IMG/VR virus record: IMGVR_UViG_2713896773_000024
From: a virus
Lineage: Duplodnaviria; Heunggongvirae; Uroviricota; Caudoviricetes
Direction: 5' to 3' (one strand)
Length of the DNA stretch: 22,080 nucleotides
Shown one piece after another: positions 2,949-9,523 of this stretch. The notes beneath the pieces are model-generated. The model searched no databases. It had not been told where the DNA came from and saw only the letters and a list, made by a program, of their open reading frames with translations. Every line of letters starts with the position of its first letter. The first letter of the stretch is position 1. The position numbers and the translations under genes were made by a program.

Positions 2949-3383
2949 ATGTTTAATAAACTGTTTGGAAAAAAAGTAGCAGCGGCAAAAGTTGAACTTA
3001 AGAAAGTGGAAAATCGCGATCTTATGGAAGCTATTGTCGGCGGTTGTCTTTTGGTATCTGCCGCCGATGGCGAGATCGAAAAAGAAGAAACCAGCAAGCT
3101 GGATCAGCTTATCCGCTCTAACCCGCGCCTTGCGCATTTCGGCAATGAAATTACATCCACCATCAACCGCTATACGGAACAGCTTGAAGCTGGCTTCCGC
3201 GTTGGCCGCATGAACATTTTGCGCGAAATCGACGACATCAAAAACGATCCGAAAGAAGCCGAAGAAGTCTTCGTCAACATGCTGACTATCGCCGAAGCGG
3301 ACGGCCAGATCGAACCAGAAGAACAGAAGGTGCTGGAAGAGGTCGGGCGCCGTCTGGGGCTGCGTGTTGAGGATTATCTCTGA
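2949..3383 (+). CDS. TerB-family (tellurite-resistance TerB-like) domain protein, 144 aa
   Basis: Two repeats of the TerB-type acidic motif: AIVGGCLLVSAADGEIEKEE and MLTIAEADGQIEPEEQKVLEEVGRRLGL; overall pattern similar to E. coli TerB as I recall it; ATG 2949 with AAGGA 9 nt upstream. Confidence 0.7.
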   Translation: MFNKLFGKKVAAAKVELKKVENRDLMEAIVGGCLLVSAADGEIEKEETSKLDQLIRSNPRLAHFGNEITSTINRYTEQLEAGFRVGRMNILREIDDIKNDPKEAEEVFVNMLTIAEADGQIEPEEQKVLEEVGRRLGLRVEDYL

Positions 3384-3565
3384 TGCTGCGCGTGCTGGAT
3401 TCACTACGTCCGGCGCTGGCCCTGCTGTTGGCCTTCATGGTCGTAGCAGTGGATTTCACCAGCTACCTGCTTTCGGTGATTGGCGACGCCTTCTTCGTTG
3501 GCGCTCTTCTTCTCCTTGTCTGGCCTGCCATCAAGTCAGCTAACCAATCAGCGGATCACCAGTAA
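3383..3565 (+). CDS. Small membrane protein, 60 aa, two predicted TM helices; translationally coupled to the TerB-like gene (TGATG overlap)
   Basis: Hydrophobic stretches ALALLLAFMVVAV and FFVGALLLLVW; start overlaps upstream stop by 1 nt. Confidence 0.6.
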   Translation: MLRVLDSLRPALALLLAFMVVAVDFTSYLLSVIGDAFFVGALLLLVWPAIKSANQSADHQ

Positions 3566-3821: not shown

Positions 3822-4793
3822 ATGATCCGCCCGTTCATCAAATGGGCAGGGGGTAAAACCCGTGTCCTTCCTGACCTGCTGCCGCACCTTCCTAAAGCCG
3901 ACTGCCTGATCGAACCGTTCGTAGGCGGCGCATCGGTATTTCTGGCGACTGAGTACCGCCGCTATGTGCTGGCTGATATCAACCCGGATCTTATTAACCT
4001 TTATCGGAAAGTCACCCGTTACCCGGACTTAGTGATCGATGCGGCCCGCGAACTGTTCAACAGCAAGAACAGCCCGCAGGGGTACAACGAAGTCCGCGCC
4101 GCGTTCAATAAGCAGGTATGTACGGTAAAAAGCTGTGGGTTGCGTTATGGCGTCGAAATGGCGCGCATCATGCGTGCTGCTCAATTCCTGTATCTGAACC
4201 GCCACGGTTATAACGGCTTATGCCGTTACAGCCGTAAGACCGGCTTTAACGTGCCGTTTGGCAAGTATAAGAGCGTCTACTTTCCTGAAAATGAAATCCG
4301 CCTGTTTGCCGAAAAGGCCAACGATACAAAGGCAATATTTCTTTGCGCGCCGTTCCAGCGTTCTCTACAGGTCGTCACGGGTGGCGATGTTCTCGTTTAC
4401 TGCGATCCGCCTTACCTGCCTGAAAGCAAAACAGCCGATTTTACCCAATACCACACCGAACCATTCACGGAAGACAACCACCGCCAGTTAGTCCAGGCAC
4501 TGCTGGAAGTTAACCGTAAGCATGGCGTGAAGGTTGTCATTTCCAACAGCGACACCGAAGCCACCCGCGCGATTTATCAGCCTTTCAAGATGCACGAAAT
4601 CAGCGTGCAACGTTCCGTCAGCACTGACAAAGACAACCGCCAGAAGGCCAAAGAAGTGATCGGCGTGCTGCCTGTCTGCGACTGCTGCGGGCGTTACGGC
4701 GGCGGTTGCCCTGATTGTGGCGCCGTGATGGGTGATGCGACTTACAACGCGATGGTTGCGGCAGGCACGTTTGACGATATGGAGGCGTTTTAA
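3822..4793 (+). CDS. dam: DNA adenine methyltransferase, Dam family, with about 45-aa Cys-rich C-terminal extension
   Basis: KWAGGK, EPFVGGASVF (motif I), DPPY (motif IV), LYLNRHGYNGLCRYS, ISNSD; clearly collinear with E. coli Dam as I recall it; extra tail ...PVCDCCGRYGGGCPDCG.... Confidence 0.9.
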   Translation: MIRPFIKWAGGKTRVLPDLLPHLPKADCLIEPFVGGASVFLATEYRRYVLADINPDLINLYRKVTRYPDLVIDAARELFNSKNSPQGYNEVRAAFNKQVCTVKSCGLRYGVEMARIMRAAQFLYLNRHGYNGLCRYSRKTGFNVPFGKYKSVYFPENEIRLFAEKANDTKAIFLCAPFQRSLQVVTGGDVLVYCDPPYLPESKTADFTQYHTEPFTEDNHRQLVQALLEVNRKHGVKVVISNSDTEATRAIYQPFKMHEISVQRSVSTDKDNRQKAKEVIGVLPVCDCCGRYGGGCPDCGAVMGDATYNAMVAAGTFDDMEAF

Positions 4794-4972
4794 TGAATCT
4801 TGTAGACGCCTGGATCGTTGAAATCATAAGCGTGAGTCGTGGCGAGATTGTGCCGTATTGGTTGGTTGAGGCGAAAGTAACAGCTTATGGAAGGGAGTCA
4901 ATAACCACAATTCTGAAGAAATCAGAAGAGGAAGCCAAAGCCGTTAAAGTAGGGGATGTAGTTCAAATATGA
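4793..4972 (+). CDS. Hypothetical 59-aa protein (below the ORF-track size cutoff), coupled to both neighbours (TAATG upstream, ATGA downstream)
   Basis: Uninterrupted frame MNLVDAWIVEIISVSRGEIVPYWLVEAKVTAYGRESITTILKKSEEEAKAVKVGDVVQI; GGAGG 7 nt upstream of ATG 4793. Confidence 0.5.
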   Translation: MNLVDAWIVEIISVSRGEIVPYWLVEAKVTAYGRESITTILKKSEEEAKAVKVGDVVQI

Positions 4973-7326
4973 CCACGGCAACCCGTGGCCGTCGCGCCCC
5001 TTCTCCACCTCCACCGTATCCGGGTAGCACTGACAATGCTATCCCTTACGCTTATGGCGGGAACAAACCATACCAGCCGATTGGCGTTGATGTAGCGCCG
5101 GGGCTGGATGGTTTCGACTATCTCATGCCGGACGGCACGCGTAAGCATATTGCGTTCAGTGAACTGGTAGCGGAGGACGAAAAGCCGGAACGCAGTAAGC
5201 TGCTGCGTCGCCGTCTGGCTTCTCTTCCGCAATATGTCCGCCGCCACTTTGCAGCGAAGCTTGATGCGCTGGATGTGAAAGACCGCAAAGCGGCAGATCA
5301 CTGGCTGCTTAACACCTTTGAGCGCCACGTATTAACGCGTATTGATAGCGTGAACAGTGTTTACCAGCCTGATACTGTGATGCCCGGCATTCTGCTGCCA
5401 ATTCGCGATCAGCTTTTCCGTATGCTCTGGGCAGGGAAAAAAGAGTTAAAAAGACTGGCTTATACGCTTGCCGATATCTTTACGAGCGAGTTTATACGCG
5501 AGTCCGATCACCAGTTGGTGCGCACCGGCGATCCTGAGTTCGCGGCGCTTTCTGGCTATGGCCGTATTGCATCGCTGGCAGTGCATCTGAAAACGCCGAT
5601 CCCCGGTTGGACAGCTTATTGCAATGAAGAACTTGAAGCGGAGGACGCGTTACGCGCAGTTCTCCGTCTTGAGTCACCGCAGTGGTGGTTAAACCGCCTG
5701 CGCCGTATCCATGCCCGGTGGCGTGAGCATTTGATGATCGCAGCGGGATACGTCCAGAAAAAATCCTCCCCATACAGTAGCGCCCCGTGCCTTACGGAAT
5801 GGCTGGCCCAGAAAAAAGCTAACCGTGAATACCTCAAGGCTATGGAACTGGAAGACCAGGACACGGGCGAGCGCATTTCGCTGATCGATAAAGTCGCCGG
5901 CAGTGTTGCCAATCCGGCCAACCGTCGCCGCGAACTCATGACGAGAATGCGCGGATTTGAAGATCTGGCGAAGCTGGAAGGGCTGGCCGGTGACTTCTAC
6001 ACGCTGACAGCGCCTTCCCGCTATCACGCTATGCAGCATAACGGGCGCCGTAATAACAAATACTGTGGCGCGTCGCCGCGTGAGACACAGCAATATCTTT
6101 GCAAAGTCTGGGCGAGAACCCGCGCCGCATGGAAGAGAAAAGGGATCCGCGTCTTTGGTTTCCGCGTGGTCGAACCGCACCACGATGCAACGCCACACTG
6201 GCATTTGCTTCTTTTTATGCGCCCGGAATGCGTCGAGCAGGCGCGCGAAATCTTCCGTAAATATGCCCTGAAAGAAGACGGCAACGAACCGGGAGCGCAG
6301 GAAAACCGCTTTCAGGTCGTGCCGATCGACGATGCCCACGGCAGCGCAACTGGCTACATAGCGAAATACATTTCGAAGAATATCGACGGCTTCGCGCTGG
6401 ATGGTGAGAAGGACGACGAAACCGGGGAAGACCTGAAAGAAATGTCACTCCGCGTTAGCGCGTGGGCATCGCGCTGGGCTATTCGCCAGTTTCAGCAAAT
6501 CGGCGGTGCGCCGGTCACGGTATATCGCGAACTTCGCCGCCTGGGCGATCGCGAACTGGTGTTACACCCTGAACTGGAAACCGCCCGGCAGGCCGCTAAC
6601 GGTGGCGAATGGGATAACTACGTATTAGCCCAGGGTGGCCCGTTGGTTGAGCGCGATAAGCTGCGCATCCGTCTGAATTATGAAACCACTGAAAACGGTA
6701 ACGCCTACGGCGATAACGTCCAGCGAATCACTGGTATTTACTGCCCGATTACGGGCAATGACTCTTTGATCTTCACCCGCACCACTCAATACAAAATCGT
6801 GCCGAAGCGCCAGAGCGCTGACGGTGTGGCCGTTGACGTTGGTTTTTCAGGCGGCAACGCCGCCCCTCGGAGTTCTGTCAATAACTGTACGCGGGATCCC
6901 GCGACAGGTGCTGACGGTCTTGAACATGCCGATCACGAAGTGGGCGAGACGGTGAATTTTGATGCTCTTTCACGGCAGGAAAAGCGGGAACTGGCACAGA
7001 GGCTAAGTGACGATGTGCGAAGTAAGCGGAAAAAACGGCCACCGGAACGGGAAGACGGGGCCGGGATATCCGTGAAAGAGCAGCAGATCAGTGAACTGCT
7101 GGCGCTGCGTGGGATTGATGCCAGCGCCGGAATGGTCAGATCGATGATGGCCGGTGCGTCAGTGGCGTGCGGCGATCTTGTTATGACAGTGCAGGATGGG
7201 CGGCTGGTATCGCGCAACCGCGCCGCGTCGGGGCTGGATAAGCTGCCGTCGCAGGTGATGGCGGCGAAGCAACAGACAAATAGTCTTATTAACCGAATGA
7301 AAAAAGCCTTTAACGGTGCGTCATAA
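4969..7326 (+). CDS. A: Rolling-circle replication initiation endonuclease, P2 A-like
   Basis: 785 aa; HUH-type motif PHWHLLLF and paired tyrosines GYIAKYISK (Y-x3-Y) typical of the phiX174 gpA / P2 A superfamily; position after early genes and before cos. Confidence 0.9.
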   Translation: MTTATRGRRAPSPPPPYPGSTDNAIPYAYGGNKPYQPIGVDVAPGLDGFDYLMPDGTRKHIAFSELVAEDEKPERSKLLRRRLASLPQYVRRHFAAKLDALDVKDRKAADHWLLNTFERHVLTRIDSVNSVYQPDTVMPGILLPIRDQLFRMLWAGKKELKRLAYTLADIFTSEFIRESDHQLVRTGDPEFAALSGYGRIASLAVHLKTPIPGWTAYCNEELEAEDALRAVLRLESPQWWLNRLRRIHARWREHLMIAAGYVQKKSSPYSSAPCLTEWLAQKKANREYLKAMELEDQDTGERISLIDKVAGSVANPANRRRELMTRMRGFEDLAKLEGLAGDFYTLTAPSRYHAMQHNGRRNNKYCGASPRETQQYLCKVWARTRAAWKRKGIRVFGFRVVEPHHDATPHWHLLLFMRPECVEQAREIFRKYALKEDGNEPGAQENRFQVVPIDDAHGSATGYIAKYISKNIDGFALDGEKDDETGEDLKEMSLRVSAWASRWAIRQFQQIGGAPVTVYRELRRLGDRELVLHPELETARQAANGGEWDNYVLAQGGPLVERDKLRIRLNYETTENGNAYGDNVQRITGIYCPITGNDSLIFTRTTQYKIVPKRQSADGVAVDVGFSGGNAAPRSSVNNCTRDPATGADGLEHADHEVGETVNFDALSRQEKRELAQRLSDDVRSKRKKRPPEREDGAGISVKEQQISELLALRGIDASAGMVRSMMAGASVACGDLVMTVQDGRLVSRNRAASGLDKLPSQVMAAKQQTNSLINRMKKAFNGAS
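6865..6881 (+). other. Candidate origin nick site inside gene A (CCTCGGAGTTCTGTCAA)
   Basis: Resembles the P2-type ori motif I recall (CCTCGGAGTCCTGTCAA-like) and lies in the 3-prime third of A where P2 ori is located; recollection not verified. Confidence 0.35.
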
Positions 7327-7378
7327 CAGCGTGCCGGGGCTTCGCTTATTCATTTTCAGAAGAAACAGGAGTGACAGC

Positions 7379-8095
7379 ATGAGCAAAATTACCAGAGAAC
7401 GCGCAGCAAAAATTGCAGCAGGCGGCGGATATAACTTTGATGAGGTGGAGGAGCTGGCGCGTATCGCGCTGGCATCGCTCGAAGCGGAGGAGTCAGGGCG
7501 AAATCCCGTGCTGGCCTATGCAGACAGTTACCGCGATATGGCTAAGCAGGGTGTTGAATCTATTCCTGTATGGAGCGTAATTACCGATCTGGAAAGAAAT
7601 ATCGCCCCGCTATACTCCGCCACGCCAGCGCCGGTAGTTCCGGCAGAGCTTCATCCTGATACGCTGAAACTGGTGACCGACTTCAGCTCCGCCCTGGCTG
7701 AGAAGTTGTACAAGGCTCAATTAAAATATGGCTATGACGCGGACTGGAAACAAGATGGTTGGCCAAGCCAATGCCAGGCAGACTTTCAACAGCATATAGC
7801 TAAGGGAGACCCCCGGGATGTTGCCGCTTACTGTGCATTTATGTGGTATCACGGCTGGAAAACTGAGCCAGCGCCGGTATCGCTGCCGGACGAGCAACAT
7901 AGCGAACGCTTCAACTGGACACTTGGGCAGTGGGCTGAACATGTTGGGGGTCATTACCAGGGAAATGATCCGGCAAACTATTACGAGTTCGGCTCATTCA
8001 TGGCGGTCGCTGCAATGCTGTGCCAATTCGGCACCGTTCAGCAAAAAATTGGATGGAACGCCTGCCGCGCCGCCATGGTTAACGCAGGCCAGTGA
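7379..8095 (+). CDS. Hypothetical 238-aa protein in the accessory slot between A and cos
   Basis: ATG 7379 with AGGAG 7 nt upstream; acidic N-terminal part, Trp/His/Tyr/Cys-rich C-terminal half; no catalytic motif recognised. Confidence 0.7.
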   Translation: MSKITRERAAKIAAGGGYNFDEVEELARIALASLEAEESGRNPVLAYADSYRDMAKQGVESIPVWSVITDLERNIAPLYSATPAPVVPAELHPDTLKLVTDFSSALAEKLYKAQLKYGYDADWKQDGWPSQCQADFQQHIAKGDPRDVAAYCAFMWYHGWKTEPAPVSLPDEQHSERFNWTLGQWAEHVGGHYQGNDPANYYEFGSFMAVAAMLCQFGTVQQKIGWNACRAAMVNAGQ

Positions 8096-8244
8096 ATGGC
8101 TTTGCGGGAGTGCTGAAAATCAGTGCAAAATTTCGCGCAAAACCGCACAAATTTTATGATGGTGATTTTTCAGGAGCAGACCAGACGGGGCGGGCCTTCC
8201 GCTGGTCTGCACATTTGCACAAAAAAGCGGGGTTTCTGCGTGCG

Positions 8245-8263
8245 GGCGAGGCGGGGGAATGAG
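8245..8263. other. cos cohesive-end site (GGCGAGGCGGGGGAATGAG)
   Basis: First 12 nt identical to the P2 19-nt cohesive end as I recall it (GGCGAGGCGGGGAAAGCAC); sits in non-coding DNA just beyond the portal gene, as in P2. Confidence 0.55.
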
Positions 8264-8361
8264 CGCGCGCTGAGGGGTGGGATAGGGTCGGTATTATCTG
8301 CGCCGATTTTCGCGCCGCTGCGCCTCGCTGCTACGTCGTTTTCGGTTCGCCGTGGTGGGTT

Positions 8362-8404
8362 GAGGAAAAAGAAAAGCCCCTGCCAGCAGGCTGCTGAGGG
8401 GCTT
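8362..8404 (-). terminator. Intrinsic terminator for the leftward P-Q operon
   Basis: 8-bp stem AAGCCCCT/AGGGGCTT with inner CAGCAG/CTGCTG pairing; on the minus strand it is followed by UUUUCUUUUUCC; 70 nt beyond the Q stop. Confidence 0.55.
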
Positions 8405-8473
8405 ACGTGCGGTGTGGTCAGTTATGGCCGTGTAGGCCTTTGCGCGGTGGTGGTGGGTGTGTCCGGGCTGGCG

Positions 8474-9523
8474 TCAGATTGCTGCCTGCAACAGTGCGTA
8501 AGGGTTGAAGCGCACCACGTCGATCCCCAGCCAGTCGTTTAACTCTTTCAGGCTTTCTTGTATCGGGGCCAGTTCGTTGATGGAAAACACCTTCGCCGCT
8601 TTCTCTACGTCGCCGAAGCCACCGGAGTTATTCGGCATTACCCCCATCAGAACGGGCGGCACGCGGTGCGCGGCTAACAGGTCGTCGCGGGTGGCGTCTT
8701 TGATGCCGGTAAACTCATCCTTCGCCGCCACCTGGCTGAACGGCATAATTTGCAGGCCGTCTTTTTTCCCGCCCGCCGCGTAGACAAACAGGTTTTTAAA
8801 AGCACCGTTGCCGCGTGCATCTTTCAGCGACTTCTTAAGCTTTTCCACATCGTTATTATTCGCCACCGGGTCAGTGAGGTAGACGATCACACCCGCATGA
8901 CTGCCGTTAATGTAGTAGTTGCGGCGGAACACCGTTGCTTCACCGTTCAGCATGGCGCTTTGTAGCGCGGCCAGATATTCCGGCGCACCGTAGATCTCCT
9001 GGTGCGGGCTGGGGTTCTTGATCTGGCAGACGCTGCCCGGTTCGAACGCGTGATCGTCAACGTAGCGCGGAACAAACCAGAATTGCGCCGGGTCTATGCC
9101 GCGCCGCGTATATTTTGCCTGGCTGTGCCGCAGCTCGATCGGCTGGCCGAGTCGGTTGCGGCGGCATTCCATGTAACAGTTACCGAAAATTAAATAATCC
9201 TGCACCCAGGCGGTGAACTCCTGCCGGGTCAACAGCGGGTGCGGTATGTAGCAACTGGCGATAACATTGCGTTTAAATATCAGCGGTGACTGGTGATAGG
9301 CGGCAACGTCGAACATGCGCGCCAGCCCGTAGGGGCTGATCGGTGGTTCATACCAGCGGCCATTGTTATGGCATTCGAGGCACTCCATAAGAGACGCGCG
9401 ATCGTTGACTGCGATCGGGTCGCCAAAGCTGAAAGATTCCACGCTTTCCAGCGGGGTGGCTGCGTTGCTGGCCGTGCTGGCTGGCGCAGCAGTTGGCGCC
9501 CTGAATTTTTTTTTGCCGCTCAA
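8474..9523 (-). CDS. Q: Portal protein, P2 Q-like
   Basis: 349 aa, correct size and position next to the large terminase and facing cos. Confidence 0.88.
   Translation of the reverse strand: MSGKKKFRAPTAAPASTASNAATPLESVESFSFGDPIAVNDRASLMECLECHNNGRWYEPPISPYGLARMFDVAAYHQSPLIFKRNVIASCYIPHPLLTRQEFTAWVQDYLIFGNCYMECRRNRLGQPIELRHSQAKYTRRGIDPAQFWFVPRYVDDHAFEPGSVCQIKNPSPHQEIYGAPEYLAALQSAMLNGEATVFRRNYYINGSHAGVIVYLTDPVANNNDVEKLKKSLKDARGNGAFKNLFVYAAGGKKDGLQIMPFSQVAAKDEFTGIKDATRDDLLAAHRVPPVLMGVMPNNSGGFGDVEKAAKVFSINELAPIQESLKELNDWLGIDVVRFNPYALLQAAI

Follow-up and report, generated by a model that had tools for sequence, protein, structure and literature searches.

The lone cargo gene in the A-to-cos slot of a P2-like prophage

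We analyzed a stretch of DNA of 22,080 nucleotides (nt) from a tailed-phage record (Caudoviricetes; IMG/VR IMGVR_UViG_2713896773_000024), in the following called the window, and focused on the one gene that lies between the replication gene A and the probable cos site of this phage (7379-8095). The window is derived from a P2-like (Peduoviridae) Escherichia coli prophage that is integrated beside cpxP, and over positions 6800-8700 its sequence and that of strain EC09 are 100% identical. Between the gene for replication endonuclease A (4969-7326, plus strand) and the gene for portal protein Q (8474-9523, minus strand), the open reading frame (ORF) 7379-8095 stands alone. It encodes a protein of 238 amino acids (aa), begins with ATG, and is preceded at a distance of 7 nt by the ribosome-binding site (RBS) AGGAG (7367-7371). 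The ATG at 7379 was preferred over a GTG at 7316, because the homologues begin at the same methionine (MS.IT.E...). An earlier reading of this DNA from its sequence alone, in the following called the sequence-only reading, had noted a single gene with a strong RBS in this slot and had described the product as acidic in its N-terminal part and rich in aromatic residues and cysteine in its C-terminal half. All of this was confirmed: residues 1-82 have an isoelectric point of 4.7, and residues 83-238 contain seven Trp, eight Tyr, seven Phe, and four Cys.

Of the public contigs, 142 encode exactly this 238-aa protein and 590 a near-identical version. Therefore, the ORF is real and usually intact, and does not represent a chance frame. 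The intact form predominates on hundreds of contigs, and 238 aa is also the length of most members of its cluster. An overlapping ORF of 113 aa in an alternative frame (7818-8159, plus strand) is not a gene; this frame is entered by a frameshifted variant of 259 aa (P0012), which occupies the same slot in a sister prophage.

The sequence-only reading had further called the protein unannotatable. In one respect this is correct: scans against Pfam (E ≤ 1), NCBIfam, and PADLOC returned no match, and the only matches in PHROGs were families of unknown function. Sequence searches of the PDB with the 238-aa protein, with a profile of its central domain (module C, see below; 0 matches), and with a profile of its C-terminal module T did not yield anything meaningful. 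But the protein is no orphan, since it has 2,779 homologues at E ≤ 1e-3, which reveal it as a mosaic of four modules of the kind found in the ea region of lambdoid phages. The features of the locus are compiled in Table 1.

Table 1. Coordinates of the gene, its modules, and the flanking features in the window
Feature	Position	Strand	Basis
Coding sequence, 238 aa plus stop; predicted mosaic ea-type accessory protein	7379-8095	+	ORF list, homologue search, contig counts
Cargo-borne 5' leader including the RBS	7356-7378	+	comparison with the A allele of TOK-001
Module N, aa 1-37, leader MSKITRER...ELARIALASLEAE	7379-7489	+	piecewise matches of relatives
Module M2, aa 38-82, RNPVLAYADSYRDMAKQGVESIPVWSVITDLERNIAPLY	7490-7624	+	relatives; swapped in the 220-aa allele
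Module C, aa 87-165, predicted three-helix phage domain, LHPDT..KYGY..W..W..C..H..KGDPRDVAAYCAFMWYHGW	7637-7873	+	alignment, structure model
Module T, aa 171-238, ...NYYEFGSFMAVA...GWNACRAAMVNAGQ	7889-8092	+	conserved in other clusters
431 nt with 100% DNA identity to the P0010 gene of a P22-like phage	7451-7881	+	DNA comparison
9-bp inverted repeat, cos-proximal backbone	8176-8210		repeat search, folding, relatives
cos-like sequence, start of the SEN5 record (GGCGAGGCGGGGGAATGAGC)	8245-8264		alignment with the SEN5 record

The gene is rare cargo of a variable slot

We compared the A-to-cos slot of sister prophages whose A and Q genes are nearly the same as those of the window. As the sequence-only reading had assumed, this slot is a variable cargo position. 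Strain TOK-001 and phage SEN5 carry a hypothetical gene together with a Dam methylase, SWYHX138 carries an oppositely oriented DUF3800 gene, and MS 57-2 and 0H26 carry ImmA/IrrE and a hypothetical gene. The gene studied here occupies this slot in only three of the 5,426 complete genomes of E. coli that were covered. It is rare cargo and not a P2 backbone protein. The slot corresponds to the gpA-gpQ hotspot, for which 1,650 arrangements at 18,150 loci were described by Rousset et al. 2022 and in which old, tin, and many validated defense systems reside (PMC9122126).

On the left side, the window has its backbone in common with strain TOK-001, which carries the nearest A allele, up to about position 7355 (...ATTCATTTT), approximately 30 nt past the stop codon of A, and the leader contributed by the cargo is only 23 nt long, including the RBS. 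On the right side, backbone homology starts again between 8096 and 8146. The ACRAAMVNAGQ tail of the protein and about 50 nt past its stop codon (8093-8146) are also found at the end of the unrelated Dam methylase cargo of TOK-001 (locus L002, 3230-3340). Because the last codons (AGQ and stop) and the following 50 nt are shared in this way, the right junction of the cargo lies within or just past the coding end.

In the same slot of sister prophages, the gene also occurs as an allele of 220 aa, in which M2 is swapped for an unrelated shorter segment, and as an allele of 158 aa, in which modules C and T are replaced by another module.

The protein is related to the mosaic proteins of lambdoid ea regions

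The homologues match the 238-aa protein piecewise. Their modules occur in many combinations and are separated by Pro/Ala-rich linkers of the PAPV type. Among 237 relatives, 164 contain C alone, 20 contain T alone, and 18 the combination M2-C; only two have the complete order N-M2-C-T. Additional domains found in the relatives are DUF551, DUF550 (MazZ-type dATP/dGTP pyrophosphohydrolase), Ead/Ea22, and DUF3850/ASCH. In a set of 150 representatives that share modules with the protein, DUF551 was present in 15, DUF550 in 12, and Ead_Ea22 in five.

The closest longer relative is P0010, a protein of 311 aa that ends in DUF551 and is identical to the 238-aa protein over residues 31-168. Its gene is located in the PL operon of a P22-like phage, past N, Ral, cIII, Kil, Abc2, and two Ead_Ea22 genes, and is followed by int. 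The 431 identical nt shared by the two genes (Table 1) are a trace of recent exchange. Dozens of E. coli genes with a DUF551 annotation match the roughly 40 nt encoding ELARIALASLEAE (7450-7490) at 97-100% identity, and three conserved linkers (ELARIALASLEAE, PLY..PAPV, and ACRAAM) are common to proteins of the DUF550, DUF551, and Ea22 types. The ELARIALASLEAE linker and the ACRAAM tail, the latter together with the 50 nt past the stop codon, are likely to be the recombination anchors for the shuffling of modules.

Judged from these shared modules, the gene belongs to a known but uncharacterized kind, the mosaic accessory proteins of the lambdoid ea type. With the proteins of the ea (exo-xis) region (Ead/Ea22-like, DUF550, DUF551, and "Eaa1") it shares the N leader, M2, C, T, the PAPV linkers, and the ACRAAM tail, as well as the pattern in which they are shuffled. 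It differs from them in that the Pfam scan found no DUF550, DUF551, or Ead_Ea22 domain (PF13935) in the 238-aa protein, and a coiled-coil domain was not detected either. The location also differs: ea-region genes lie between the recombination genes and int, as the early-left copy encoding P0010 does, whereas the gene described here lies between A and cos of a P2-like prophage.

Each of the three complete genomes has the gene flagged by RefSeq (PGAP) as a pseudogene, with the remark "incomplete, missing C-terminus". The reference proteins behind this flag are longer and end in DUF551. Since the allegedly missing part is module T, for which about 20 other protein clusters have a conserved counterpart (65-87% identity), we read the flag as a consequence of mosaicism, and all three calls appear to be artefacts of this kind.

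A similar case may be found elsewhere in the window. The Dam-type methylase ORF 3822-4793 encodes an intact protein of 323 aa with a Cys-rich extension at its C-terminus (...CDCCGRYGGGCPDCG...YNAMVAAG...), and the tail of this extension is loosely reminiscent of the ACRAAMVNAG tail encoded by the cargo gene. In EC09 and its relatives, RefSeq annotates this ORF as two separate pseudogene fragments, which is possibly another mosaicism artefact. Between fil and this methylase (about 2950-3565; locus L001, 14150-14766), a TerB-family protein and a DUF3927 protein are encoded. This pair is missing in the sister prophages L010 and L012, and the position is therefore a second small variable spot.

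Module C is a widespread phage domain

Module C is strongly conserved, with the consensus LHPDT..LV.RFA.ALA.KL..AE.KYGYSDGW...DW.DECR..L.EH..KGDPRDVAAYCAFLWHHG. It occurs as a stand-alone protein of about 80-150 aa (e.g., about 90 aa) in diverse phages and metagenomes, and its homologues are found in early lytic operons of both temperate and virulent phages. In Burkholderia phage BcepNY3, it is flanked by a helicase on one side and DNA polymerase I on the other. It adjoins a helicase in Pseudomonas phage Cygsa01 and a thymidylate synthase in a Dolichospermum phage, lies upstream of DNA polymerase A in a metagenomic phage, and is part of a nin-like region in a Proteus prophage. In gp295 of the Caulobacter jumbo phage CcrSC (locus L023, 1856-2656), an N-terminal HD domain of the SpoT/RelA type, which resembles alarmone hydrolases, is followed by a diverged module C. 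A search with this C-like segment retrieved eight relatives only. The version of phage C1 is a separate protein of 95 aa; therefore, the fusion to the HD domain is a local event.

The polar residues K109, K116, Y117, C132, H139, K142, D144, D147, Y151, C152, and H158 are nearly invariant in module C. Four further positions distinguish the protein of the window. Positions 114, 130, 131, and 138 (7718-7792) are occupied by E, D, E, and E in most stand-alone members and by Q, S, Q, and Q in the 238-aa protein. Of the 207 enterobacterial members of the mosaic type, 132 have the combination Gln/Ser(Thr)/Gln/Gln, and the protein of the window is one of them. By its sequence, this loss of acidic residues would fit the loss of a metal site. 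We also considered a Cys2His2 zinc site formed by C132, H139, C152, and H158, which is doubtful, as the residues are spaced i+7 and i+6 on single helices.

AlphaFold, run on module C with a diverse alignment, returned a confident three-helix model (predicted local distance difference test score, pLDDT, 92.7). The closest solved fold is that of AF_0060 (PDB 2P06; SCOP a.204), which is similar in size (about 88 aa) and is placed by SCOP in the superfamily of all-alpha nucleoside triphosphate (NTP) pyrophosphohydrolases (PMC2238974). In the model, the helices of module C can be superposed on this member of the superfamily. A search of viral structure models with Foldseek first retrieved members of the family itself, then the HD protein of CcrSC (E 2.7e-3), and then weak matches to DUF550 (E about 1). 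The genomic context points in the same direction, with family members fused or adjacent to nucleotide pyrophosphohydrolases.

Transcription signals and the cos flank

We next turn to the expression of the gene. A crude consensus scan of the 480 nt upstream (6900-7379) did not find any σ70-like site. RNA past the stop codon of A folds at -5.3 kcal/mol, which is weaker than the mean of the shuffled sequences and was equaled or bettered by 172 of 200 shuffles; by this comparison, there is no terminator after A. These results suggest that the gene is cotranscribed with A. Given the lack of a promoter-like site upstream and of a terminator-like fold after the A stop, it probably occupies the distal position in the early operon. 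An Rfam scan of 7000-8600 was empty.

Downstream of the gene, the sequence-only reading had noted an inverted repeat with a 9-bp stem, followed by cos. The repeat exists, with the arms GCAGACCAG (8176-8184) and CTGGTCTGC (8202-8210) separated by a loop of 17 nt, and it could form a stable hairpin (-23.3 kcal/mol, z = -2.95). But it belongs to the conserved flank of cos and not to the cargo: the sequence is common to prophages with other cargo, its arms are imperfect there and do not co-vary, and a run of T residues does not follow on either strand. For the same reasons, the repeat was ruled out as the terminator of the gene.

The record of the P2-like Salmonella phage SEN5 has its first base at window position 8245, and its last bases match the window up to 8244; the record is marked circular, so that its origin is the choice of the depositors and not a documented virion end. 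The sequence at 8245 resembles the cohesive end of P2. Thus, cos is likely located at 8245, after the inverted repeat as had been proposed, and the SEN5 numbering places the gene at its far right end, beside the cos-like sequence. On the minus strand just downstream of Q (8374-8404), a GC-rich 8-bp hairpin (AAGCCCCT/AGGGGCTT) is followed by a run of T residues and is likely the terminator of the Q-P transcript.

An early accessory function is favored over phage exclusion

Taken together, we favor the view, to which we assign a probability of about 0.45, that the gene encodes an imported early accessory protein of the lambdoid ea type with a predicted AF_0060-like core that binds a nucleotide or a factor and serves lytic growth. 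Recombination at short conserved linkers would have brought an ea-type gene from lambdoid or P22-like phages into the gpA-gpQ hotspot of P2. There, it would most probably follow A on the early Pe transcript, so that the protein would be made during infection or induction and not in the quiescent lysogen. As its functional core, we propose the small three-helix domain, which probably forms oligomers and whose fold is related to that of the AF_0060/MazG-type all-alpha NTP pyrophosphohydrolases, with N, M2, and T as exchangeable adaptor modules. This core may bind a ligand resembling a nucleoside polyphosphate or a host factor, and may thereby serve phage DNA and nucleotide metabolism or counter-defense. 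Because Gln and Ser replace the commonest Glu and Asp at four positions of the family, we expect it to bind rather than to hydrolyze. In this proposal, we infer the ligand from the fold and early expression from the missing promoter.

A number of observations weigh against this proposal. The match to the AF_0060 fold is moderate for a three-helix domain, and a Foldseek search of the PDB with module C was not significant. The Pfam models of MazG (PF03819) and DUF550 (PF04447) did not match at E ≤ 1. A comparison of module C with DUF550 segments by hhalign gave a probability of 0.6% and did not indicate any relationship, for which reason the idea that module C is a diverged DUF550 was dropped. 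Accordingly, the link to the superfamily is structural and contextual only. In contrast to the AF_0060/MazG-type proteins, with which module C has no sequence or profile similarity, the canonical metal motif EXXE...EXXD is not present; by inspection, only D144-x2-D147 can be mapped onto it as invariant, and E114, D130, E131, and E138 are the residues exchanged in the protein of the window. The model of the full-length protein was too poor to be used (pLDDT 48), and the analysis yielded no structural or functional lead for M2 and T. Furthermore, the consensus scan for promoters leaves room for expression in the lysogen, the hotspot is rich in defense genes, and many of the unknown genes in it do defend (PMC9122126; bioRxiv 10.64898/2026.02.27.708500).

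This last point leads to phage exclusion; for this or another accessory function, the sequence-only reading had considered the gene the best candidate in the window. The gene could encode a single-gene exclusion system of a new type, expressed by the prophage and guarding the lysogen against other phages in the manner of tin and old, with which it shares the A-to-cos position and the character of a non-essential, rare, and variable cargo. Of the P2 elements, 19% have unknown genes alone at the main defense locus, and machine learning scores 15-32% of the unknown P2 proteins as antiviral (bioRxiv 10.64898/2026.02.27.708500). But homology to Old or Tin was rejected, as P2 was absent from the tblastn matches among 50,697 phage records. 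The protein also lacks an ATPase, TOPRIM, nuclease, TIR, SIR2, or membrane module, and it has no match in PADLOC. The consensus scan did not detect an independent promoter for this gene, for which the cargo provides only the short leader past A. Virulent phages commonly carry the core domain (Cygsa01, the Caulobacter CcrSC group, and several enterobacterial phages of 90-115 kb), and it also occurs in early operons beside replication genes, a place in which exclusion genes are not expected. The slot itself also accepts cargo other than defense genes, such as the Dam methylases. Beyond the location, nothing about the gene argues for a role in phage exclusion, which seems unlikely to us; we predict that the gene is more likely an early phage helper than an exclusion gene of the old/tin type.

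The relationship to the ea region allows for a different function. Ea22 of phage λ is itself modular, with a portable C-terminal domain, and has a pro-lysogenic effect (PMC10834534, PMC7093339). The protein could act in a similar way, as an oligomeric early modulator of the lysis-lysogeny decision, with a host factor as its binding partner and a bias on development or host survival as its effect, and the fold of its core would then be incidental. Its modules and their home locus in the exo-xis region are indeed common to genes of the Ead/Ea22 family. On the other hand, neither PF13935 nor a coiled coil was detected in the protein, module C is also present in strictly virulent phages, which do not make a lysogeny decision, and P2 has its own Cox/C switch. 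We therefore regard this function as improbable. The possibility that the gene is a functionless passenger or the decaying remnant of an illegitimate recombination, as implied by the RefSeq flag, the frameshifted and some truncated variants, the replaceable modules C and T, and the loss of the acidic residues typical of the family, is the least probable of all, given the strong RBS, the frame kept intact on so many contigs, the conservation of the supposedly missing C-terminus, and a flag that is explained by comparison with longer references.

Implications for P2-like phages and the module C family

Returning to the favored early accessory function, a more far-reaching version of it can be formulated, which we regard as rather doubtful. 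According to this version, the core would represent an undescribed, widespread family of AF_0060/MazG-like phage domains that is recurrently linked to pyrophosphohydrolases of deoxynucleoside triphosphates or alarmones. The clade with Gln residues would be a non-catalytic binder (sponge) of nucleotides or second messengers, or an inhibitor of a host factor, and the gene a device for counter-defense or pool control that is traded between lambdoid ea regions and the defense hotspot of P2.

What is of moderate interest is that the gene lies in a P2 hotspot and that its core domain is uncurated; nothing about the gene is categorically new. For P2-like phages, the locus indicates that the gpA-gpQ hotspot, besides housing defense islands, captures early accessory genes of unrelated lambdoid phages through linker homologies of about 40 nt. 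For the family, our results provide a very common but uncurated phage domain of about 80 aa with a hypothesis, namely the binding or hydrolysis of nucleoside polyphosphates, which, if true, would annotate thousands of phage proteins now listed as "hypothetical".
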